A stretch of DNA of 33,835 nt from Candidatus Niyogibacteria bacterium RIFCSPLOWO2_01_FULL_45_48. Its GTDB lineage: Bacteria; Patescibacteriota; Minisyncoccia; HO2-45-28. Location of the stretch: NCBI GenBank assembly GCA_001819395.1, contig MHMQ01000015.1:1-33835 (forward strand), given 5' to 3'. The notes below the pieces were generated by a model. The model made no database searches. It was given only the letters and a program-made list of their open reading frames with translations, and was not told the DNA's origin. Of the stretch, positions 4,389-25,825 are shown piece by piece. The first letter of the stretch is position 1. Each line of letters opens with the position of its first letter. The translations under genes and the position numbers were made by a program.

Positions 4389-5090
4389 TTAATTTTTGAC
4401 AAGAGCCGTGCTCTTGTCAGCATTTGTCCAGTCTGTTAAAAATTTCCAATATTCTTCGCTGTTATTGTCAAAACACTCAATTACCGGCCCTTTTTCAATA
4501 ATCGGCGCAAATTCTTCTCTTGTTTCAAGATATTCCGGCAAACTTGACCATTTATAGTCTCTTAAAAACTTCTCTGCCCCCACCTTATCCTCAACATATC
4601 CCCGCTCTTTCCACATTGGATCAAAAATTTTAAGCGGATTTAGATGAATGTACCGGCTTGTGTGAGTATATTGTATATCATTTTCCACATGAACCGCTTT
4701 AAAGCGCCCGCTAAACAAAGGTCCGGAACGTTTATACTTAGTATTAAAATATAGCGCGTGGCTGGTTTCAAGGCGATGCATAAAGATGCTTATATTACTC
4801 TCTCCTAATTCTTTTACGAGCAGATGGAAATGGTTTGGCATTAAACACCACGCCAAAATTTCAACCAGTCGCTCTCCTTCTTTACTGTCTGTGTCAAGAG
4901 CCGTGCTCTTGCCATCCTTTCCAAGCACACGATCCATTCTAACTGGCCTACCGGAAGTATCGTTTAGATAAAACAGCAAAGCAATAAACCTGTGTCTATC
5001 AAAATCATTTTCAAATATAATCCTTTTTTCTACGCCTCTAGAAAAAATATGGTATATTTCTCCTTCCACAAACTCTATGCCACGAATCAT
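4389..5090 (-). CDS. REP-associated tyrosine transposase (RAYT, TnpA_REP; IS200/IS605 HuH Y1 transposase fold), 233 aa
   Basis: HuH motif LMPNHFHLLV. Catalytic Tyr in the RAYT-type context SRYIHLNPL. Flanked by inverted REP-like hairpins. Contains an internal REP-derived insertion (GKDGKSTALDTDS). The last 9 aa (DKSTALVKN) are encoded by a REP copy. Confidence 0.8.
   Translation of the reverse strand: MIRGIEFVEGEIYHIFSRGVEKRIIFENDFDRHRFIALLFYLNDTSGRPVRMDRVLGKDGKSTALDTDSKEGERLVEILAWCLMPNHFHLLVKELGESNISIFMHRLETSHALYFNTKYKRSGPLFSGRFKAVHVENDIQYTHTSRYIHLNPLKIFDPMWKERGYVEDKVGAEKFLRDYKWSSLPEYLETREEFAPIIEKGPVIECFDNNSEEYWKFLTDWTNADKSTALVKN
4397..4419. repeat. REP-like palindrome TGACAAGAGC-CGT-GCTCTTGTCA (copy 1, overlaps 3' end of RAYT CDS)
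   Basis: Perfect 10-bp arms and 3-nt loop read directly from the sequence. Confidence 0.85.
4892..4914. repeat. REP-like palindrome, copy 2 (TGTCAAGAGC-CGT-GCTCTTGCCA), internal to RAYT CDS
   Basis: Core CAAGAGCCGTGCTCTTG is identical to copy 1. It lies in-frame within the gene and encodes KSTAL. Confidence 0.8.
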
Positions 5091-5983: not shown

Positions 5984-8900
5984 TTAGTAAGTGCTGTTGA
6001 AGTACTCGGAGTTCATCTGTGTAGCCGGAAGACCGATTACACCATAGCCGTTTGTCCAGTCAAAGTCATCAATTGAAGCCGCGGTTGATGTTGAGCGGGG
6101 CGACCAGATGAAGTCGTCGTTCGTCAACTCCGCGTCAGTAGTTGTTGCCTTGAACATGTTGCCGGCTGTGGCTGGTTCGTCGTTGTTCAGGAAGGTGACC
6201 GGGTATGCCGCGTCACCGAGAAGAGCGACACTGAAGGTATCCTGCACGCTAGCGGTGCTTTCAACGTTGGCCACGGTGGCCTTGAAGGCAAAGTACCTGG
6301 TAGCGCCGTCGGCAACAACATAGGTGGTTGTTGCGTTACAGCCGTAACCAATGGCACCCTTGTCAGGATAAATCTCAACAACTGACGGAGCGTCTGTCCT
6401 ATCCGAAAGCTTGGCAGTGCTGGTGTGGAAGTTGTTTCCGCCTATGCAGTTTGCGTAGTTAATCAAGCCGTCGGAAGTAAATGCGGAATCAACAAGCGAG
6501 AAGCCGGAATCCGTGTAGGCGTAGAGTCCGAAACTAGTTGTCGTTGCCACCTCTGAAGACGAGCTGATGGAAAAGGACAACTTGTAAATCGCAAGGTCTC
6601 CTCCGCTTGCCATAACACTGAAACGATACAAGGTTTTGTTCGCTTCGGTTGTTCCGTTGGTCAAGGAGTTGCTCGGAACGCTAAGTTTGGCGAATGTCGG
6701 GTAGGACTTGTTGACACGAATACCGGATGAAGATGTGTCGCTGGCGGAAGGACCAATGTTGGTTCCTGAAGCCAATCCGACTCCGAAAGTACCGCCGGTG
6801 TAAGTGGAACTGCGCTCGTTATCACCGTCATAGTCAACCGTCAGGAAGTTTCCTGAAGCGGTAATCGGTCCCGAATCGGTAATCGCGCCTATATCGCCCT
6901 TAACAATCATAACTTTGGATCCGGATCGCGGAACAACAAAGTTTGTGATGTCGGACGAAGTCGCGGTATCACCAGTCGGGAATCCGGCCGTGCCAACCAT
7001 ATTACCCGCAGTGTCCCACAAAGTAACTTGCGAGCTAATCAGGTCAGTCGGCGCGTTTGAAGCAAAGCGGGAAAGCTGAAGGGCGACTTTTCGAAGCTCA
7101 ATATCTTCGTTAGTCGCGCTAAAGCGAACTCTTAACAACTCAACGCCTGCGGAGCCTGCGGTTACAATCTTGTACCCCGGGCTTCCGGCATCAAGCGCGA
7201 CTGAAAGAGAACCTCCCGAAGCAACGGTCATGGTCTGACCCTGGCTGTCGGTAATGGTTTCTGCAACCGTCTGACCGCTGGTTAGTCCTGTAGCACCCGT
7301 AAAGGTTGTCTGCGCGCCGTCAAGTCCCCATGTGTGGGTTTCGCCAGATCCGGCGGAAGCCGAAACATCGCACTTGAACTGCAGGGTCTTTGCCGTTCCT
7401 TTTGGAACAGTGAGTCCCGAGCCGTCAAGGACGAAGTTGGTGCCGGACGCGAATGAACCCGGATTGACGACATTTGAAGCATTAACAATCGTTGTGCCGT
7501 CGTAGATCTTGCAGTTGGTAAGATCGGTGGCTGAAGATCCTCCTCCGCCGTTATTTTCAATCGGCAAGCTGGTTACGCGAATGTCTTCTCCCGAAGCTGT
7601 CGCGTCAAGAACAATGCTTGCCAAGTGGAATTGCGCCGCTCCCGCGATAACGGTCTGCGCCAACGGGAAAGATGAAACCGAGAAAGCCAAAGCGCCTGCT
7701 TTTATGGTCATCAAGCTCATCGTAATCGGTGAAGTCGGGCTTGGAGTAATCGTGGTGTTTGTGATCTGTCCTCTGACGGTTCCCCATCCGGAAGGCGTGG
7801 TGGAAGCCTGGAAGGTGTCGTCGTTATCCAAGTCTGTTCCAATTTTACCTTTCAAAATATAAGAGTGGACGCCGACCGGGAAAGTGATGGTGTCAGAGAA
7901 TTTAATCTCACCGGTTGCGATTCCTGCGGCACCCGAGGCATTGCCTTCAGCGGCAACACCATCAACTGGACCCGCGATAACCGCGCCGTTTTCGTCATAA
8001 AGCGAAACACTGGTGATGTCGTCAGCATCTTCACTCGATCCTTCGTTTTCAAGATGAACGTTGAAGTGCATCGCTGCGACCGAAATCGGTTCGCCCTTGA
8101 CATCAACTGTGAAAGCGCCCAATGGCTGGTTCGCAAGGTTTATAGCAACATTTTGAGCAGGGGCCAAAACATTGTTAACAGAAACTGTCATTGTGCCTTG
8201 CGAGATGGTTACTTGTGCCGCGTCGTAGTACGGGTCATCCGCGTTGTTGAAGTCCGCGCCGTCAGTTGCGGCGGCTGCAGCATCAAACGGCGGATTAAGG
8301 CCGTAGCCGTAAAGCGCGCCCTGGAAGGCCACATCCGTGGTCTTCTGAATGTCAAAGTCAACCGTTCTTAACGATCCTCCGATGATATCACCCTTAATGG
8401 TGATTTCTTTGGAGAATCCTTTGGCCATCAAGACGCCTTTTCCGCTGTTTTCAACAAACACCGCAGTGTAGTATTTGCCGTCAGCGCTCACTGTAGGAAC
8501 ATATTCGCTTCCGTTGGCGTAAACCTTGACATTTGTCAAGTCATCCTTGGAAGCAGAACCTGACTGGTACCACCTGACGTATTTAATGTATACGTCTTCG
8601 GCGGAACCGGACGTGAATTTAACAGACGAGAAAGTGTAGGTTTTTGTTCCGACTTCTTTTGTCTGTGATGAACCCGGGTCAAGCGCTCCTCGCGCGGGAC
8701 CGGGGATGGTGCCGATGGTCAATGTTTCGTTGATTGTGTGGCCAGCGCCGACAACCGGGAATGAGCCGTTAACCGCGGCATTCGCGGCGACCGATGCTAC
8801 CGAAAGATAGGCAATCTGTCCGCCATATCCTCCGCCCGATGTTTGGGCGTTTCCGCCGACAACCACTGTTTTGGTCTGTCCGGCCTTAACCACAAAGTCC

Positions 8901-9706
8901 TCGGTCAAAGCCGCCTGGTGAAGGGAATTCAAAGTTTTTGAAATTCCGATTTGCGTTCCCTGGTCATCCAGAAGAATGACTCCGGAGAACGAGGCGTCTT
9001 GGGCGAGACCCGTGCGCTCAACCGTGATTGAATCCACGGTCACGTCGCCGTCAGATGAAGCAGTAAGATTTACAACCGTAAACGGAACTCGCGTTGAGTT
9101 TACCGGGAACAAACTTGATACCGGCTGAACTCCAGCCGAAACCGTAAGTCCCGATCCAACTGGAGTAACAACTGGTACTGTTCCCCCGGTTGTTCCTCCC
9201 GTAGTGCCTCCGGTTGTTCCGCCGGCAACCATGTTGTACTTGGCTTTTGAAATAGAGCCGAAGTATCCGACTGCGGGCGAAACGGCATTAGCCGATTGCC
9301 ATGCCGAAACCGCTGATTGCGTTACAGAACCAAAGTATCCGGTGGCTCCTCCACTAAACGTGAAGTGGCCGGTTCCGATCAAGTAGTTCTGCAGGCATGT
9401 TACGTCATCACCCTTTGAACCCATTGTAAGGTCGCGAGTGAAGGCGCAAGCTCCGGCTGTTGCGGGCGCCGTGCCCGATGTCGCTTGGCCCCGAAGAGAC
9501 GCGTTAACATTGTTTATCGTCGCCTGATCGGTATTAAACGACTGCAAGAGCGAAAGAATCGACTGGATTTGCGCTTCGGTCAAAGCCGCGCTTGCGACCG
9601 GAACCAAAGCGGATCCCGCCAATAAAATCGCAGTTGACACAGAAACGATGGCTGCCGCCACTTTCCTGTGTTTTGCAATTAATTTACCCATATAATAATT
9701 TTTCAT
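5984..9706 (-). CDS. Large cell-surface protein (1240 aa): signal peptide, peptidoglycan-binding domain (PG_binding_1-like, approx 9235-9445), (GGTT)n linker, long Thr/Ser/Gly-rich beta-sandwich region
   Basis: Track ORF. N-terminus MKNYYMGKLIAKHRKVAAAIVSVSTAILLAGSALVPVASA fits a signal peptide. DDVTCLQNYLIGTGHFTFSGGATGYFGSVTQSAVSAWQ fits a PG-binding motif. Confidence 0.85.
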   Translation of the reverse strand: MKNYYMGKLIAKHRKVAAAIVSVSTAILLAGSALVPVASAALTEAQIQSILSLLQSFNTDQATINNVNASLRGQATSGTAPATAGACAFTRDLTMGSKGDDVTCLQNYLIGTGHFTFSGGATGYFGSVTQSAVSAWQSANAVSPAVGYFGSISKAKYNMVAGGTTGGTTGGTTGGTVPVVTPVGSGLTVSAGVQPVSSLFPVNSTRVPFTVVNLTASSDGDVTVDSITVERTGLAQDASFSGVILLDDQGTQIGISKTLNSLHQAALTEDFVVKAGQTKTVVVGGNAQTSGGGYGGQIAYLSVASVAANAAVNGSFPVVGAGHTINETLTIGTIPGPARGALDPGSSQTKEVGTKTYTFSSVKFTSGSAEDVYIKYVRWYQSGSASKDDLTNVKVYANGSEYVPTVSADGKYYTAVFVENSGKGVLMAKGFSKEITIKGDIIGGSLRTVDFDIQKTTDVAFQGALYGYGLNPPFDAAAAATDGADFNNADDPYYDAAQVTISQGTMTVSVNNVLAPAQNVAINLANQPLGAFTVDVKGEPISVAAMHFNVHLENEGSSEDADDITSVSLYDENGAVIAGPVDGVAAEGNASGAAGIATGEIKFSDTITFPVGVHSYILKGKIGTDLDNDDTFQASTTPSGWGTVRGQITNTTITPSPTSPITMSLMTIKAGALAFSVSSFPLAQTVIAGAAQFHLASIVLDATASGEDIRVTSLPIENNGGGGSSATDLTNCKIYDGTTIVNASNVVNPGSFASGTNFVLDGSGLTVPKGTAKTLQFKCDVSASAGSGETHTWGLDGAQTTFTGATGLTSGQTVAETITDSQGQTMTVASGGSLSVALDAGSPGYKIVTAGSAGVELLRVRFSATNEDIELRKVALQLSRFASNAPTDLISSQVTLWDTAGNMVGTAGFPTGDTATSSDITNFVVPRSGSKVMIVKGDIGAITDSGPITASGNFLTVDYDGDNERSSTYTGGTFGVGLASGTNIGPSASDTSSSGIRVNKSYPTFAKLSVPSNSLTNGTTEANKTLYRFSVMASGGDLAIYKLSFSISSSSEVATTTSFGLYAYTDSGFSLVDSAFTSDGLINYANCIGGNNFHTSTAKLSDRTDAPSVVEIYPDKGAIGYGCNATTTYVVADGATRYFAFKATVANVESTASVQDTFSVALLGDAAYPVTFLNNDEPATAGNMFKATTTDAELTNDDFIWSPRSTSTAASIDDFDWTNGYGVIGLPATQMNSEYFNSTY

Positions 9707-12996: not shown

Positions 12997-13995
12997 TTAA
13001 ATCTTAAAACTCTTCGGAGCTATGCAGTCCTTCGGCTTTTTATCTTTGCGAATGTCGGCGAAACGGGCGTTATCCAGTTTTCCCGAAGCGAATCGCCCGT
13101 CAAAATTCACCTGCATCACTATGGAATAGCGCGTTTTCTTCAGTTTCTTCCGCATGTCGTTCGTGAATCCGCCGAGCTTTCCGCAAGAAAATTCTTTGCC
13201 AGTCTTCGGGTCAATTTGCAAAATCTCAACTTCTTTCAGCCGCTCGGGGTCTGTTTTTGAAGCAAACCACTTGCGGACAATGAAATCATCCTCGTAAGTC
13301 GGCTTCCATTTATAACAGCCTTTAATTCTTTCGGGATTTTTGCCGTCAAGACGGAAAGACAAACGAAACTCGCTATCGTAAAGCACAAGCCCTTCCCAGT
13401 TATTCTCAATCACCATCTTTTTTGCCGTTTCAAAAGTTTCATTGATGACTTCCACCGCGGAAATGTTTTTAAGAAAAGAAAGGTGTGAGTCTTTAAGAAG
13501 CTTGAGACGAAGTTTATACGATACGGTTCGAGCGCAATCGTTACCACCGGAGAAAAGAACATCAAAAACAACGAATCGCACAAAACCCAGCTCTTTCTGA
13601 ACTTCAAGCGCACGAGTGGGGCCGCTTGAAAGAACGCTTGCGGCAGCCGTGCGTTCATCCTTTCCATTTATAACCATCACGCCTTCGCCGACCAAAAGAG
13701 CCTTTGACCAGCCTAAACTTTCCAACTCTTTGACAATATGCGGCACTCTGTCGCTTACGTCGCGTAGACCGTCGGTAAAAATTCTGACTTTGCCTTTTTT
13801 GTTGAAAAGGGCAAAAAGTTTCCAGCCGTCTCGCTTGCGGGTAATAATCAGCCGTCCCTCTTTCTCAAGTTCCTCTAAAACTTCGGGATCGTAAGCTTCG
13901 CGCTGAATCGGCTTTGCCAGGACAAAATCTTCCGGCAAACTTTCAAAGTCAAAACTGAAATTCTTTGGGTCGCTCTCGCTCTTTCGCGCCGACAA
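12997..13995 (-). CDS. ATP-dependent DNA ligase (compact, 332 aa)
   Basis: Adenylation motif I IITRKRDGWK (KxDG active-site lysine). TTG start at 13993-13995 preceded by GGAGGTG. Confidence 0.8.
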   Translation of the reverse strand: MSARKSESDPKNFSFDFESLPEDFVLAKPIQREAYDPEVLEELEKEGRLIITRKRDGWKLFALFNKKGKVRIFTDGLRDVSDRVPHIVKELESLGWSKALLVGEGVMVINGKDERTAAASVLSSGPTRALEVQKELGFVRFVVFDVLFSGGNDCARTVSYKLRLKLLKDSHLSFLKNISAVEVINETFETAKKMVIENNWEGLVLYDSEFRLSFRLDGKNPERIKGCYKWKPTYEDDFIVRKWFASKTDPERLKEVEILQIDPKTGKEFSCGKLGGFTNDMRKKLKKTRYSIVMQVNFDGRFASGKLDNARFADIRKDKKPKDCIAPKSFKI

Positions 13996-14033
13996 TCAGC
14001 ACCTCCTCTCGGGTTTTTGGGTTGTTTGCGAAA

Positions 14034-15326
14034 CTAAGCCGCGCCGCTCATAAAGCTGGCCACGGGTTCGTCAATAAAAACGTCTTCCCGCCTGACGGGT
14101 TGGCGCAGAGTCAGTCCGCCAAGCGAAGTGCACCTGCTCAAAGCGACATACGCCTGTCCGGGAGCAAAAGCCCCTTTTCCAAGATCAATTACAACTTTAT
14201 CAAACGTCTGGCCCTGCGACTTGTGGATTGTTACAGCCCAAGCGAGCTTAAGCGGATACTGATAGTAAGAGCCCCTTACGACGCTTTCCATTTTTTTCAG
14301 TCTATCGTTGTAAGCGAACTCAACATTGTCCCAGCGGTGAGTGGTCAGAGTATGCGTTCCGCGCTTGGTAATTTCAACCTCTACGCCGATGTCTCCAAAT
14401 CCAACCACCGTGCCTATGTCGCCGTTCACCCATCTTCCCTGCGAATCGTTATTTAAGAGCATGACCTGCGCTCCTACTTTAAGAATCAGATTCTGGGCCG
14501 CCGGTATTCTGTGCGATGGAAAATTTCCGATGATAATTCCCTGTCGAGCTCTCGCCTCGCCTTTGAGCCGCGTGAGCTCTTCGGTGTTTATGCTTTCGGC
14601 AAGATTGTTTGTCGTTGTCAGATACACAACTCCTTTCAATGCCTTTCGGGAAATAGACGATTTTACGCGTTTATTGAGCATGGCTAAATCTTTTTCCGAA
14701 AATTCTCCCACCCTTATTTTATTTAAGACATCAATAAACTTTTTTTCGGTCTGGCGATAGACATTATTTAAAACAACTTGCTTGACACCGGCGTTTTTGA
14801 AAGATCGCGCCGAAAAAAAGTACGGGCTGTCGTAAAGTTTTGAAAACCACGATTTGTCTTTTTCTTCCAAAACAGGCGGAAGCTGGTAAAGATCACCCAT
14901 AAAAATCATCTGGACTCCGCCGAAAGGCGAATCGTTTTCCCGGCAGACGCGTAATCTGGCATCAACCGCATCTAAAAGATCGGCCCGCACCATTGAAATT
15001 TCATCGATGACGATCGTGTCAACGGATTTTATCAGTTCACCGCGCCGAGGATGACATCCTTCGGCCGCTTTTTCCGGCGTAATATCAATGCCGAAGCCGA
15101 AGAAAGAATGGAGTGTTTGTCCGCTTACATTTATAGCCGCGATTCCGGTGGAAGCCGTGACCGCCACGCTCTTTTTGGTATTCTGCCTGAAATGAGTCAG
15201 TAAAGTGGATTTTCCCGCACCCGCTCTGCCTGTCAGAAAAATAGATTCTCCGGTTTCTTCCATCAGCTTAAAAGCCGAGCTTTTTTCTTCATCCAGCCGA
15301 AACTGGGGCTTGTTCTTGTCCGACAC
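14034..15326 (-). CDS. Pif1-family 5'-3' DNA helicase (SF1B, RecD-like), 430 aa
   Basis: Walker A GRAGAGKST. Pif1 signature region MIFMGDLYQLPPV. Motif AVTIHKSQGQTFD. GTG start at 15324-15326 with GGAGGAAA five nt upstream. Confidence 0.85.
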   Translation of the reverse strand: MSDKNKPQFRLDEEKSSAFKLMEETGESIFLTGRAGAGKSTLLTHFRQNTKKSVAVTASTGIAAINVSGQTLHSFFGFGIDITPEKAAEGCHPRRGELIKSVDTIVIDEISMVRADLLDAVDARLRVCRENDSPFGGVQMIFMGDLYQLPPVLEEKDKSWFSKLYDSPYFFSARSFKNAGVKQVVLNNVYRQTEKKFIDVLNKIRVGEFSEKDLAMLNKRVKSSISRKALKGVVYLTTTNNLAESINTEELTRLKGEARARQGIIIGNFPSHRIPAAQNLILKVGAQVMLLNNDSQGRWVNGDIGTVVGFGDIGVEVEITKRGTHTLTTHRWDNVEFAYNDRLKKMESVVRGSYYQYPLKLAWAVTIHKSQGQTFDKVVIDLGKGAFAPGQAYVALSRCTSLGGLTLRQPVRREDVFIDEPVASFMSGAA

Positions 15327-15376
15327 CCGCTTTCCTCCGATATTTAGTTCTCAAATTTCCAAAGATCCTTTCGCCG

Positions 15377-15405
15377 ATTTTAACATTACTTTCTGTATTT
15401 GTAAA
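15377..15405 (-). promoter_or_regulatory. Candidate promoter for pif1-ligase operon (minus strand): TTTACA (15400-15405), 17 bp, TAAAAT (15377-15382)
   Basis: Hexamers and spacing read from the reverse complement, about 45 nt upstream of the start codon. Confidence 0.45.
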
Positions 15406-15435
15406 GAACAAGCAGTGTGTAAAGTTGTGTCTGCG

Positions 15436-15479
15436 AAATCCGACAAAATAAAAACGATCGTTTTTATTTTGTCGGATTT
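15436..15479. repeat. 44-bp perfect inverted repeat AAATCCGACAAAATAAAAACGATCGTTTTTATTTTGTCGGATTT (hairpin; possible bidirectional terminator and/or operator)
   Basis: Perfect 19-bp arms around the palindromic CGATCG centre. Sits between the stop of the PNPOx-like gene and the pif1 promoter. Confidence 0.8.
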
Positions 15480-15507
15480 TAAATTACAAACAACAAAACA
15501 AGCGGTT

Positions 15508-15951
15508 TTATATTTTTACTCTGAAAAAGTGGCCGAAAATCTCTTGGTTTATGAAGTGGACCTCTGTTGGTTCTATTACATATATAGCATGGTCTGGAAA
15601 CTTGTCGGCCCAGCTGTATCTTTTTTTGTAAATTGCGTAATATTTTTTGTATTCGTTTTTCATGGGCCGTCTAGCGACGCCGGAGATTTGAAGACCTTTT
15701 ATTGAACCAAGTCCTCCCCAATTCTGATTTATGGTCAGGGCAACACGCGGATTTTTTAGAATATTTTTGCAATGCCTTGTGTCGGGCCGAGAGAAAAATA
15801 AAATGTTTAAATTTTTATCAAAAGCGAAAAACAAGGTTGAGGCCCACGGCCCGCCGTTTTTGCTTGATGTTGCCAAACTCATCAATTTATTTTCGGCCAA
15901 GTATTTCAAAACTTCACTCGCCAAAAAATTTTTGGTAAATTTTTTCGGCAT
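15508..15951 (-). CDS. Pyridoxamine 5'-phosphate oxidase-like FMN-binding split-barrel protein (general stress protein 26-like)
   Basis: 147 aa. Resembles the PNPOx-like family (LKYLAENKLMSLATSSKNGGPWASTLFFAFD). Confidence 0.6.
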   Translation of the reverse strand: MPKKFTKNFLASEVLKYLAENKLMSLATSSKNGGPWASTLFFAFDKNLNILFFSRPDTRHCKNILKNPRVALTINQNWGGLGSIKGLQISGVARRPMKNEYKKYYAIYKKRYSWADKFPDHAIYVIEPTEVHFINQEIFGHFFRVKI

Positions 15952-15959
15952 ACGTTCCC

Positions 15960-16340
15960 TTACTTTTTCTCTTCAAATTTCAAACAGACGGAGTTGACGC
16001 AATGCCTCTTGCCTGTCGTGTCTTTCGGCCCATCGTCAAAAACATGTCCCAGATGAGACTCGCATTTGGCGCAGACGACTTCGGTTCGTTCTATTCCGCC
16101 GTCATTATCTTTTTTAAATTCAACCGCGTCCGGAAGCGCTTGGTCAAAACTGGGCCAGCCGGTGCCCGAATCAAACTTGGCACCGGACGAAAAAAGAGGA
16201 TTTCCACAGGCCGCGCATTTGAAAGTCCCCTCTCTTTTTTCATGCAAAAGTTTTCCCGAAAAGGGCGCCTCCGTCCCCTTCTCGCGCATAACACGGTATT
16301 GTTCTGGGGTTAGTTTGTTTTTTGTTTTATTCTTATCCAT
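15960..16340 (-). CDS. msrB: Peptide methionine-(R)-S-oxide reductase MsrB
   Basis: LTPEQYRVMREKGTEAPFSG...GWPSF...HLGHVFDDGP... plus two CxxC pairs (CAACG, CAKCESH). Classic SelR domain. Confidence 0.9.
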   Translation of the reverse strand: MDKNKTKNKLTPEQYRVMREKGTEAPFSGKLLHEKREGTFKCAACGNPLFSSGAKFDSGTGWPSFDQALPDAVEFKKDNDGGIERTEVVCAKCESHLGHVFDDGPKDTTGKRHCVNSVCLKFEEKK

Positions 16341-16478
16341 ATTATTTTTAAAAATCCATTAATTTTCATCATTAACATTCGTCAACGGCCGTTTATGAGT
16401 GTTAACTTCATTTCTGGTTTTTAATTTTTAGCAACTTCGCGAATTTTTTACTTTTTCCATATTTTTATATTCTAACAT

Positions 16479-16504
16479 AAGAAAAATCCCGATACTTCGG
16501 GATT
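16479..16504 (-). terminator. Intrinsic terminator after deaminase-fusion gene (AATCCCG-aaguau-CGGGATT + U5 on minus strand). Overlaps the stop codon.
   Basis: 7-bp stem, A-run 16482-16486 on the + strand. Confidence 0.65.
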
Positions 16505-17408
16505 AAACCTTCTTTTCGCCTAAAGCGTATTTTTTGGCCGACCGAACCGCGTCTCTTATTAAAACCCTAGCCCATTTTCCGTCACAGGGAACATGTATCC
16601 TTTGCGCGTGATGCATGAGAAACTGTGTGGAACAACGAATGCAGGAATGAACCGGTTCGGCTTTGACCAAAACCAACCCGTTTTCTGAAATTCCGGCGAC
16701 ATAAAAATCGCATTCCGCTGGATGTATATTTTGGTCTCTGACCGAAACCAGCGCGACCTCCTCGGCATGAGCGCAACACCCTATCATTGATTCGGTGCGG
16801 GATGTAATTTTTTTGCGAATACATTCCGGCTCGCACCAATCCTTAAAACAATCCAGCTTGTGGTTAAAACCCGCGGCAACCTCGCGCCCTTTGCGTCTCG
16901 CAACGCATCCGAATTTTGATTTTTCACAATCAGACTGAAACGCCTGAAGCAAACACCTGCGATAAACCGCGTTTTTAAAAAGAGGATTACATCCGGAAAG
17001 ATCGCGAGCAACCGCGAGCCGCAACATCAGATATCGGGCTTTTACATTCTCTGACTTAAACAATTCTTCCCTTGAGCGTTCGGAGACATTGCCCGAATTT
17101 TGCAAAAGCTGCTGGACCTCAAAGTAATCTTGAGAGAACTGCGAGGCAGAAAAATCAATCCTTTTTCCGCCAATCTCATTGAAATAATGCGAGCGAACAC
17201 CGGCTATTCTTGGATTAGCGGATTTTGATAAATCAAGCCGGATTATTTTCCCGCCGAAAAAATCCTGAACCACAAGCGCAGTCGGAACACACTGTCCTCC
17301 CGCGGGATTTTCTTTTGACCACTTGTTGGGCTCATTACAAGTGTCTTTGCACCAAGACCTTTCAATCGCGCCTCTTAAAATTCCGGCGTCAATTCTGTTT
17401 TGCGTCAC
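16503..17408 (-). CDS. Two-domain protein: N-terminal domain of unknown function (aa 1-170, with GGQCVPTALVV and SHYFNEIGG motifs) fused to a C-terminal dCMP/cytidine deaminase-like zinc domain
   Basis: GCVARRKGREVAAGFNH (deaminase beta1-beta2). Cys-rich insert KLDCFKDWCEPEC as in dCMP deaminases. Zinc ligands CAHAEE (HxE) and HSCIRCS (CxxC). Confidence 0.65.
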   Translation of the reverse strand: MTQNRIDAGILRGAIERSWCKDTCNEPNKWSKENPAGGQCVPTALVVQDFFGGKIIRLDLSKSANPRIAGVRSHYFNEIGGKRIDFSASQFSQDYFEVQQLLQNSGNVSERSREELFKSENVKARYLMLRLAVARDLSGCNPLFKNAVYRRCLLQAFQSDCEKSKFGCVARRKGREVAAGFNHKLDCFKDWCEPECIRKKITSRTESMIGCCAHAEEVALVSVRDQNIHPAECDFYVAGISENGLVLVKAEPVHSCIRCSTQFLMHHAQRIHVPCDGKWARVLIRDAVRSAKKYALGEKKV

Positions 17409-17423
17409 CGGTCAGCCCTCCGT

Positions 17424-17936
17424 TTAAAGAAATCTTCCGTGGTAAGTATAAACCAGCAAAACTATTATGGCAACGATCAAAATCTGCAAAGTTATCCCGA
17501 AAGCGGGCATATTCCTTAATTTCAAGTACGGCGAGTGAATCCACTCATGGAATTTTTGCAAATATACAATGGGACCTCGGCGCACACGGCCATATACAAA
17601 CTGCAAAGCGTCCGGCGTAACGCCTCCAACAGCGCCCGCCAAAACGGCAAAAGCGGACTGGGGCGAATAAAATAAAGCAAGCGATAAAATTATTCCGAGC
17701 GAAAAATCGCTCCCTATTCTTAAAATGTCCGCAAAAAAGGTTCTATCAAAAACTAAATTTGCCGCGACCGTGGGATCAATCGAGCCGGACTTTATTTCAT
17801 ATTCCCAATGAGGAATAGCATCCAAAATAAAGTGGAGCACGAACCCCGCGAAAAATCCCGAAATGGGACGCGCCGGATTCAAACTTGCGACAGCCGCGCC
17901 CGCTATGGCATGAGTGGTAAGAATCATATCAGCCAA
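17424..17936 (-). CDS. Integral membrane protein, possibly DUF457/YdjM-like membrane-bound metal-dependent hydrolase
   Basis: 170 aa, multiple TM helices. HFILDAIPHWEY resembles the YdjM-family HxxxD...H motif. Weak assignment. Confidence 0.45.
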   Translation of the reverse strand: MADMILTTHAIAGAAVASLNPARPISGFFAGFVLHFILDAIPHWEYEIKSGSIDPTVAANLVFDRTFFADILRIGSDFSLGIILSLALFYSPQSAFAVLAGAVGGVTPDALQFVYGRVRRGPIVYLQKFHEWIHSPYLKLRNMPAFGITLQILIVAIIVLLVYTYHGRFL

Positions 17937-17938
17937 TA

Positions 17939-18535
17939 TTAAACCAACTCAAACAAATTTATAACTCCGGAGGCGTAAATAAAGTTAAAAATAAAATTTC
18001 CGGCCAAAATAACCGGCCAAATCCGCCCGAATCTGTAATTCAAAAATCCTAGGGGTACTACCAAAATTTCATTCGGCAAAGGAACAACGGCCGAAAAAAG
18101 AAAAAGCAGAGTCATGGGCGCCCACCAATGGCGCTCTCCGGCGCGCTCAAGCGCGATTATCATTTTTCTTTTATCGTCTATGACCTCGCGGCCAAGGCGC
18201 CCAATAACATATGTAAAGGAATCCGCGAGCGTTACACCTATGGTAATTAAAATTATCGTTGACCAGAAGTTCAGGCCCGATTCCAGAAAAAGAGGCAAAA
18301 AGGCAATCGCAGGCACGGGAACGGCAAGATTGAAGCCGGAAATAACCGCGACCGCAAAAATGCCATAATATCCGTAGTCATATACCAGCTCGGCAACCAT
18401 TTCGTTTTCGCGCGAAACTTGAGCGAAATAAAAAGCAGTCGCCAAAATCGCAACCAAAACCGCAAGCTTCAAAATAATTTTAAGGGATTTTCTGGCCATT
18501 TGGTTAATTGTAGCGTCTTTTAAAAAACTTGACAA
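17939..18535 (-). CDS. DedA/VTT-domain family membrane protein
   Basis: YDYGYYGIFAVAVISGFNLAVPVP resembles the DedA core. 198 aa, multi-TM. Confidence 0.6.
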   Translation of the reverse strand: MSSFLKDATINQMARKSLKIILKLAVLVAILATAFYFAQVSRENEMVAELVYDYGYYGIFAVAVISGFNLAVPVPAIAFLPLFLESGLNFWSTIILITIGVTLADSFTYVIGRLGREVIDDKRKMIIALERAGERHWWAPMTLLFLFSAVVPLPNEILVVPLGFLNYRFGRIWPVILAGNFIFNFIYASGVINLFELV

Positions 18536-24337: not shown

Positions 24338-25825
24338 TTATTTCAGCACTCCCCAAATATTCGGGTCCTGGCCTCCGTCAAATTTAAATATGGCAACGCC
24401 GCGCACTCCGAGTTTTTTCGCAAGAGCGACTTTGTCGGCAACGGCCCTAGAATCGCTCCACGAAAGATAATTGAACGGCTGGCTGACACTTGCCTGCGAA
24501 TTTTCATTTTCTGCCACGGAGGACGAAGCGATAGTCTGCTGGGTTTGGGTGGATTCATCGCTTGAAGGAGCGGTTTCCTCCAGAAGCTTCGGGTCGTAAG
24601 TGAATCCGATTTCCCCAGCTTCGTTACGGGCCGGCGTGATGCCGAGTTTCTCCGCAATTTCTATGGCGTATGTCGGGTTGAAAGGCCATAACACTTTGTA
24701 TTCGTGCTTGCCGTTTGATACGGGTGTTACCTTGTATTCGTAGCCATATGTGGGAATGCCGATTATCAATTTGTTTTTTGAGATGTTTTGGGAGGCAAGC
24801 GTCGCTAATTCTTCAACCCACTCAATATCGGCAGTCGGCGCGTATGGCGCGGGACGTATGCCGTTTAAGCGCGTGTCTATCGTGCCTTGGTCGTAGGCCA
24901 TTATCTCCACCCTGTCGCAATATTTATTCATCTCCACGTAATCGTTCGCGTAGTCTCTGGCGTCGGGAGGAATGACGGCGCCCGGGCTGTATCGGCTTTC
25001 AAGAGGCATGCGGGCCTCAATCGTGCAATACACCCATTTATTGCCCATGCGCTGATAAAGGCCTTTTAGAAAAGTTGAGAAATAATTTATTGTCTCGTGG
25101 CGCTTGGCTTCAAAGTCAATGTCTATGCCGTCAAAATTATTTTTCTTTACTAAGTTCGCGATCTCGTCTTCAAGAGCTATTCGCGTTTTGGTATTGCTCA
25201 ATATCTTGTGAATGTTGGCGCCGTTGCCCCACATTACAGTCGGTATCACTCTTACTTTATTTTGTCTGGCCATTGCGATAAAACTCTTCCACGGTTCCTC
25301 GGTGAGTCGCGCGGTGTCTGCGAGCGTGCCGTCGCTTTTTACGCTGTAGCCGAAAGGCATGACGCCTGTAAGCTGTGATAAATGCGGGAGGACGTCTTGG
25401 GTTCCGGTAGCGGAGCGCCAGTAGGGTATCCAGCCTGAAATTTCAAAGGCCCCCGTGGCCGGCCCGGTAAGCGGACTGCCGTTTGCCGAGAAAGCCTGCC
25501 TGCTTGCGGGAATGGCCGTAGCCATCGCTGATTGTGTCCGCGGGCCATAAACGCCGTAGCCCGAAGCGCTTGAGCCCGCACAAATTATTTCTTTATTGCA
25601 CTGGAATTTTTTGATGGCATTTTCAGTCAGCGCGCCGAAGTATCCTGTAGCGTATCTGTCTGCCAGATATCCGGTTTTAATTAGGGATTTTTGCAGATCG
25701 GTGACATCTGCGCCCGAAAGTCCGAAATAAAGCGAGCGCGTAGCGGCAAAAGCGCCCAAGGGCACGGCGGAGAACAGTATAAAAAATAAGAATAAGAATA
25801 AAACGGCAAAACCGGCGTATTTCAT
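24338..25825 (-). CDS. Secreted glycoside hydrolase family 18 (chitinase-like / peptidoglycan hydrolase) with N-terminal PG_binding_1 domain
   Basis: Signal peptide. PG-binding motif ADVTDLQKSLIKTGYL...GYFGALTENAIKKFQ. GH18 catalytic motif FDGIDIDFE (DxxDxDxE). Confidence 0.8.
   Translation of the reverse strand: MKYAGFAVLFLFLFFILFSAVPLGAFAATRSLYFGLSGADVTDLQKSLIKTGYLADRYATGYFGALTENAIKKFQCNKEIICAGSSASGYGVYGPRTQSAMATAIPASRQAFSANGSPLTGPATGAFEISGWIPYWRSATGTQDVLPHLSQLTGVMPFGYSVKSDGTLADTARLTEEPWKSFIAMARQNKVRVIPTVMWGNGANIHKILSNTKTRIALEDEIANLVKKNNFDGIDIDFEAKRHETINYFSTFLKGLYQRMGNKWVYCTIEARMPLESRYSPGAVIPPDARDYANDYVEMNKYCDRVEIMAYDQGTIDTRLNGIRPAPYAPTADIEWVEELATLASQNISKNKLIIGIPTYGYEYKVTPVSNGKHEYKVLWPFNPTYAIEIAEKLGITPARNEAGEIGFTYDPKLLEETAPSSDESTQTQQTIASSSVAENENSQASVSQPFNYLSWSDSRAVADKVALAKKLGVRGVAIFKFDGGQDPNIWGVLK

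Follow-up and report, generated by a model that had tools for sequence, protein, structure and literature searches.

A 301-residue protein of Candidatus Niyogibacteria joins a deaminase to an uncharacterised accessory domain that is probably catalytic. By the tests applied, the protein belongs to both the Pfam YunG family and the cytidine deaminase (CDA) superfamily, but not to the ComEB equivalogs, the anti-phage deaminases or the toxin deaminases. YunG is fused recurrently and independently to enzymes of pyrimidine and nucleotide metabolism, and these fusions tie the domain to that metabolism. We favour, with modest confidence, a two-domain cytoplasmic enzyme that works in the salvage or house-cleaning of pyrimidine nucleosides or nucleotides.

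The fusion gene and its surroundings

The gene lies in a 33,835-nucleotide stretch of DNA, the whole of which was analysed and is called the window. It occupies the minus strand at exactly the position that an earlier note on this DNA had given, and all the motifs quoted there are found in its product. The gene and its local signals are as follows.

16503..17408, minus strand: complete coding sequence of 301 amino acids with a GTG start (ORF list and sequence)
17416..17421, minus strand: GGAGGG ribosome-binding site, 7 nt 5' of the GTG start (sequence)
17424-17426, minus strand: stop codon of the preceding co-directional gene (sequence)
16485..16504, minus strand: terminator-like hairpin of 8 pairs (4 G-C) followed by TTTTCTT, overlapping the stop codon (pattern match)

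A sequence search found a deposited hypothetical protein, from a Candidatus Niyogibacteria MAG, that is 100% identical over the 301 residues. Since public databases already contain both the sequence and the architecture, the object itself is not new. The earlier note had described a stand-alone gene with its own terminator. That it stands alone is doubtful: its start codon lies 15 nt past the end of a membrane-protein gene of the same direction, and this order is kept in sister genomes. The hairpin and T-run of the proposed terminator are present, but such sites are no more frequent around 16485..16504 than in shuffled sequence.

By its annotated gene content, the remainder of the window resembles an ordinary CPR chromosome segment. 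Besides ABC transporters and FtsX, its products include a methionine sulfoxide reductase of the MsrB (SelR) type, a PNPOx-like protein, a PIF1 helicase and an ATP-dependent DNA ligase, and it carries genes for three tRNAs. The PIF1-family helicase (430 aa) sits directly beside the small ligase (332 aa) at 12997-15326 on the minus strand. Its matches to PADLOC candidate systems (PDC-S68, E 2.5e-24) are of a generic RecD/PIF1 type, and no partner proteins of the matched systems were found. A 1240-residue protein at 5984-9706 (minus strand) contains a short peptidoglycan-binding domain near its N terminus, with no Pfam match in the other ~1100 residues; the same peptidoglycan-binding domain occurs in a GH18 protein at 24338-25825. 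A 233-residue ORF at 4389-5090 (minus strand) contains an IS200/Y1-transposase-like domain and may be the remnant of a mobile element.

Structure and conservation of the two domains

The N-terminal half of the protein is composed of a YunG domain, in which three residues form a candidate triad.

16998..17378, minus strand: YunG domain, residues 11-137, Pfam PF24585 (Pfam HMM), with a predicted papain-like (Cluster III) thiol-enzyme fold
17289..17291, minus strand: Cys40 codon (TGT), candidate nucleophile at the N terminus of helix 40-51 (conservation 97%, DSSP of the model)
17187..17189, minus strand: His74 codon (CAT), candidate general base at the start of strand 73-79 (conservation 99%, model)
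17154..17156, minus strand: Asp85 codon (GAT), candidate third triad residue after strand 82-84 (conservation 100%, model)

The earlier note had seen an N-terminal region of ~170 residues with no recognisable fold. The region is really about 140 residues long and corresponds to Pfam PF24585: residues 11-137 match the YunG profile with 97.7 bits against a cutoff of 27 (E 6.4e-28), and the match spans profile positions 5-115 of 116, so that the gathering score places the domain in the family. PF24585 is named after Bacillus subtilis YunG, and no function was found for it. Literature searches for YunG, yunF/yunE and PF24585 returned only surnames or nothing, with no characterised member. Nor did the N-terminal region turn out to be an already described extension that regulates ComEB-type dCMP deaminases, the possibility against which the earlier note had set its own reading; the searchable literature is silent on YunG.

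Most YunG members are free proteins of ~120-140 residues, whereas here YunG makes up the N-terminal half of a fusion. Like other YunG domains, that of the query retains the conserved Cys, His, Asp and Gln. Conservation was calculated over 326 YunG domains, fused and free. In addition to the three candidate triad residues, Gln90 (99%) and Asn77 (97%) are conserved, as are three arginines, R57 (90%), R113 (88%) and R125 (97%). The Cys is absent from some YunG domains. The query lineage differs from the family by W37G, A41V and V42P at otherwise conserved positions, and the query also carries unusual S24C and D26E substitutions at conserved positions.

AlphaFold2 predicts residues 1-140 alone with a pLDDT of 95.3, and the whole protein, with 20 homologues, with a pLDDT of 90.3 and a pTM of 0.88. 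In both models Cys40 opens helix 40-51, His74 lies in strand 73-79 and Asp85 follows strand 82-84. The modelled domain therefore shows the features by which a papain-like fold is recognised, namely a Cys at the N terminus of a helix and a His and an Asp on the following strands, all conserved. As modelled, this layout is the canonical, non-permuted papain- or transglutaminase-like arrangement. A hint at a thiol enzyme or permuted papain core in the earlier note fits the models in its first part, the conserved Cys, His and Asp being placed as in papain-like enzymes, but a permuted core was rejected because the residue order is the canonical Cys, His, Asp. A Foldseek search of the PDB with the N-domain model gave no significant match, and no more than a chance match came from searching PDB sequences with the N-domain profile. 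Cluster III of the papain-like superfamily includes arylamine N-acetyltransferases, protein glutaminases, SseI-type deamidases, transglutaminase-like enzymes and DUF2026/2HLY (PMC10318531). We infer from the models and the conservation that YunG is a Cluster III papain-like domain, in which Cys40, His74 and Asp85 would be the catalytic triad.

The C-terminal half contains the deaminase domain and its predicted zinc site.

16524..16988, minus strand: cytidine-deaminase-fold domain, residues 141-295, of a divergent dCMP-deaminase-like subfamily
16779..16835, minus strand: family-specific insert C192-E-P-E-C196-I-R198 ... S203-R-T-E-S-M-I-G210 (93-99% conserved)
16758..16769, minus strand: H214-A-E216-E217, predicted zinc-ligand His and catalytic Glu (aligned to the HAE of 2HVV)
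16632..16643, minus strand: C256-I-R-C259, two predicted Cys zinc ligands (aligned to the PCPDC of 4P9C)

Judged from its sequence, this half is a deaminase domain of CDA fold that appears intact and falls in the dCMP-deaminase-like branch. It possesses the H(C)AE and (P)CxxC motifs of the CDA superfamily and the three-layer α/β/α deaminase fold. The proposal that HAE and CxxC supply the zinc ligands is upheld: both fall on the zinc-binding motifs when aligned with dCMP deaminases of known structure, and among 182 relatives H214, C256 and C259 are conserved at 100% and E216 at 99%. The assignment of a deaminase domain agrees with these motifs, but residues 147-267 of the query score 24.4 bits against Pfam PF00383, just under the curated cutoff of 25. 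Most relatives carry a precomputed PF00383 assignment and so pass where the query falls just short.

Among solved structures, dCMP deaminases are nearest in sequence, and the family profile favours them over TadA. Similarity to dCMP deaminases of the ComEB, T4 Cd and PBCV-1 bi-DCD type (2HVV, 4P9C, 1VQ2, 7FH4) is marginal, with E values of 0.003-0.007 by family profile. Unlike ComEB-type dCMP deaminases, the query displays the nearly invariant, family-specific motif CEPxCIR...SRTESMIG in its insert. Moreover, none of the solved or characterised dCMP deaminases found here carries YunG, whereas the query deaminase does. The insert, with its conserved Cys and Arg residues at 192-210, may form a second zinc site and/or a lid over the substrate; residues 192-209 (pLDDT <50) are the only low-confidence part of the whole-protein model. 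The whole protein gave no match in a direct sequence search of the PDB and none in NCBIfam at E up to 1. The ComEB equivalog (TIGR02571) was rejected as an identity, given the lack of an NCBIfam match for the query and a score of 20.8 bits against a cutoff of 219 for a stand-alone relative (P0167).

Distribution, fusion partners and gene context of YunG

The earlier note had regarded the fusion as unusual. If this is taken to mean rare, it does not hold. A first search found 20 clusters with the same two-domain architecture, and the C-domain profile matched 334 clusters, most of which are 285-305 residues long and contain both domains; JGI gives several of them the label 'deoxycytidylate deaminase'. 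In an exhaustive profile search over 1.84 billion representative proteins, 3,091 proteins matched either half, 102 of them at E 1e-30 or better. The 379 proteins that were fetched include 160 YunG-deaminase fusions, 173 proteins with YunG alone, 41 with this deaminase subfamily alone, 2 with tandem YunG and 1 with the deaminase-YunG order. About 19 of 69 YunG loci in species-representative genomes are fused. With hundreds of fused clusters and this proportion of fused loci, the YunG-deaminase architecture is a common feature of CPR bacteria and no oddity.

The hosts named in the records are mainly CPR/Patescibacteria and DPANN archaea, with scattered others. Free YunG copies are also present on large plasmids of Bacillus, Priestia, Lysinibacillus, Ralstonia and Streptomyces, where those whose annotation was seen are all given as 'hypothetical protein' or left unannotated. 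No YunG relative is encoded in phage records, and a phage origin was rejected on this ground. The two tandem YunG-YunG proteins comprise 402 (P0233) and 313 residues (P0184). In five proteins of ~202 residues (P0071, P0077, P0086, P0091 and P0218), YunG is joined to DUF1653 (PF07866), a small domain of unknown function. The 315-kb 'Stenotrophomonas rhizophila' plasmid CP031730.1 (L083) and the Lysinibacillus fusiformis plasmid NZ_CP130332.1 (L086) share the same gene order and product sizes at YunG, namely cupin, Rrf2, CMD, Lrp, GNAT, YunG, FMN reductase and dioxygenase. This likeness reflects either a mis-assigned record or a recent cross-phylum transfer.

YunG is joined to the query-type deaminase in both orders, N to C in the query family and C to N in P0225. 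It also follows a ComEB/PBCV-1-type dCMP deaminase in P0216 (best PDB match 7FH4, E 3e-8), and is joined to a cytidine deaminase of the tetrameric-CDA type in P0237 and to a genuine orotidine-5'-phosphate decarboxylase (PyrF) in P0209, which scores 212 bits against an NCBIfam cutoff of 193. L059 has a NUDIX hydrolase as the partner, whereas L037 and L063 each have a hydrolase of the HAD family. In P0220 the partner is an ASCH domain, which matches the ASC-1 ASCH domain in the PDB with E 6e-4 and is sub-threshold for Pfam ASCH. All the partners that could be identified work on nucleotides, nucleosides or nucleic-acid bases, except that ASCH binds them, and pyrimidines dominate. This set of partners constitutes the strongest functional evidence on YunG.

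The two domains are also encoded separately. In a Terrybacteria locus (L024), a separate deaminase gene ends 15 nt ahead of a free YunG gene. Such an adjacent pair was seen in this locus only, and the idea of a split gene was set aside. Two stand-alone copies of the query-type deaminase have no adjacent YunG on their short contigs. In another locus (L091 860-2005), a free query-type deaminase of 182 residues (P0363) lies immediately 3' of the gene for a different, CMP/dCMP-type deaminase of 164 residues that has a weak MafB19/TadA-like match, forming a tandem deaminase pair with no YunG.

The neighbours of YunG vary. In cultured Bacillaceae the free gene adjoins a GNAT N-acetyltransferase gene in three different arrangements, and a GNAT gene also stands beside the fused gene in one CPR lineage. 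The Priestia YunG gene lies behind EVE, NUDIX and GrpB genes; NUDIX or EVE/NUDIX genes neighbour YunG in two loci. Genes next to the fused gene differ among relatives and include those for ribosomal proteins, YceG, IMPDH and EPSP synthase. A Pfam tally of 122 genes flanking the 69 YunG loci is headed by glutamate dehydrogenase (6) and GT4 (4), followed by NDK, deaminase and AAA_28 (2 each). A conserved operon was thus rejected, as fused-gene neighbours vary and no family dominates the 122 flanking genes, and the fusions were therefore taken as the main functional evidence. The glutamate dehydrogenase (ELFV) genes are immediate neighbours of free YunG in six loci of DPANN-type archaeal MAGs (L015, L020, L022, L033, L034 and L048), where they were assigned to same-strand downstream ORFs by size and position. 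Their proximity may represent lineage synteny or hint at a link to ammonia or amide metabolism.

Sister genomes of the Niyogibacteria lineage share with the window a gene order of a VTT-domain protein, a membrane protein of ~166 residues, the YunG gene, MsrB (SelR) and PIF1. In some sisters the YunG gene encodes a YunG-only protein of 144 residues that is 63-88% identical to the N-domain of the query, and no deaminase remnant was found in any frame of these loci. Other sisters have a 246-residue form, in which the deaminase half is devoid of the core from HAE to CxxC (P0003, P0007; L081 1198-1938). P0003 and P0007 share 54% and 51% identity, respectively, with the query over the aligned region and keep the first and last thirds of the deaminase; their sequence suggests a pseudo-deaminase or an intermediate in decay. 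The sisters keep YunG after loss of the deaminase, and YunG therefore has a function of its own, while the deaminase is dispensable in this clade. The copy in the window has the conserved residues of both halves all intact. In the YunG-only sisters (L079 2413-4978 and L080 1933-2915; window counterpart 14034-18535), a HicB/HicA pair occupies the position of the missing deaminase, and the adjacent MsrB (SelR) gene is a 67-residue fragment. This suggests that an insertion or deletion event reshaped the YunG-only loci.

Proposed function and alternative readings

In the salvage or house-cleaning role favoured here, we infer both the substrates and the order of two steps. The deaminase domain would convert a cytosine nucleotide or nucleoside to its uracil form by zinc-dependent hydrolysis, with the zinc held by His214, Cys256 and Cys259 and a proton shuttled by Glu216. 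YunG would carry out a thiol-dependent reaction at an amide or amine in the same pool of metabolites, by way of a thioester intermediate. Its step would come first and remove or transfer an amide-linked group, after which the base would be deaminated.

A more specific proposal, reached by analogy and in itself rather unlikely, is that YunG represents a new family of thiol (Cys-His-Asp) amidohydrolases stripping N4-acyl groups, for example from N4-acetylcytidine (ac4C) or its nucleotides. The fusion would then carry out the sequence ac4C to C to U on substrates derived from RNA turnover or scavenged from hosts. The ASCH-domain N4-acylcytidine amidohydrolases, E. coli YqfB and human EOLA1, act upstream of cytidine deaminase and take off the N4-acyl group that blocks deamination (PMC6972931; bioRxiv 10.64898/2026.08.01.741249). 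Because of this block, N4-acetylcytidine needs to be de-acylated before salvage. YunG would be a non-homologous functional analogue of ASCH/YqfB/EOLA1, a possible analogy drawn only from domain partners; its fold and catalytic residues are unrelated to theirs, and the query has no Pfam match to ASCH. An amidase-then-deaminase logic would account for the associations with ASCH, CDA, dCMP deaminase, NUDIX, HAD and GNAT.

An alternative that is unlikely but carries some weight is an ordinary housekeeping dCMP deaminase, which converts dCMP to dUMP for thymidylate synthesis and in which a non-catalytic YunG serves regulation, nucleotide binding or oligomerisation in place of the classical allosteric control by dCTP and dTTP. 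The nearest solved relatives and the JGI labels of several family members agree with this reading, as does the wide occurrence of the fusion among housekeeping genes; a regulatory YunG would also fit the loss of the Cys in some YunG domains and a pTM that suggests a fixed domain arrangement. The 97-100% conservation of Cys, His and Asp and their papain-like placement are nevertheless hard to square with a pure binding domain. YunG is mostly a free protein of 125-140 residues, its fusions to PyrF, NUDIX, HAD and ASCH lie outside classical dCMP-deaminase allostery, and sister lineages retain it without the deaminase; the query, for its part, does not match the ComEB equivalog model. The same sisters, with their YunG-only and core-less forms at syntenic loci, and the query's five substitutions at conserved YunG positions might instead be explained by a relic on its way to loss in this lineage, with no selected bifunctional role. 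This is distinctly improbable for a gene that keeps every catalytic and conserved residue in both domains, a full-length frame and a good ribosome-binding site, and whose product is modelled confidently across both domains. It is also improbable that the protein edits nucleic acids or erases modifications, with the deaminase acting on C (or A) in tRNA, RNA or DNA and YunG recognising or processing a modified base in the polymer. In the profile comparison dCMP deaminases rank ahead of TadA, the PyrF, NUDIX, HAD and tetrameric-CDA partners act on free nucleotides or nucleosides, and Pfam recognises no RNA-binding domain.

Deaminase fusions are known in defence systems and in polymorphic toxins, and the protein might belong to a conflict system: it could deplete nucleotides as an anti-phage deaminase or be a deaminase toxin, and YunG would be a sensor or processing peptidase. 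Several Cluster III papain-like families are toxins (PMC10318531), and ~1.2 kb downstream, beyond two genes, is the PIF1-type helicase, which shows weak similarity in PADLOC. The helicase matches reflect generic RecD/PIF1 similarity, however, and neither the fusion protein nor its flanking genes match PADLOC. An anti-phage nucleotide-depleting deaminase was rejected, as NCBIfam shows no anti-phage deaminase match (NF041025), the N-domain is YunG and not a kinase, and the neighbours are housekeeping genes that vary among relatives, with no phage copy. A polymorphic toxin was likewise rejected: Pfam gives YunG and PF00383 only and no toxin-deaminase family, the protein opens directly with YunG and contains no secretion, targeting or trafficking domain, and there is no immunity-like partner and no small downstream gene conserved across relatives. 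A conflict-system role is accordingly very improbable. In the earlier note, too, the architecture fitted neither the antiphage nor the toxin class cleanly.

If YunG were merely a regulatory appendage, the protein would be an ordinary variant of a dCMP deaminase. The fusion serves as a 'Rosetta stone' that, together with the PyrF, NUDIX, HAD, CDA and ASCH fusions, links YunG to pyrimidine nucleotide metabolism. Three things appear to be undescribed in the searchable literature: a papain-like character of YunG, the systematic way in which it is coupled to enzymes of pyrimidine and nucleotide metabolism, and the fact that it is concentrated in CPR and DPANN organisms. A YunG that proved to be a new amidase directed at nucleobases would give maps of nucleotide salvage a further step and might find use in prodrug activation or as an RNA-modification tool.

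CPR bacteria and DPANN archaea are without most of de novo nucleotide synthesis and depend on scavenged products of nucleic-acid breakdown and on nucleotide salvage. The fusion provides a testable lead, by way of a proposed mechanism, into the salvage of modified nucleotides in these ultra-small symbionts. If the ac4C to C to U reading is true, genome-reduced CPR bacteria and DPANN archaea would recycle modified pyrimidines with a single polypeptide.
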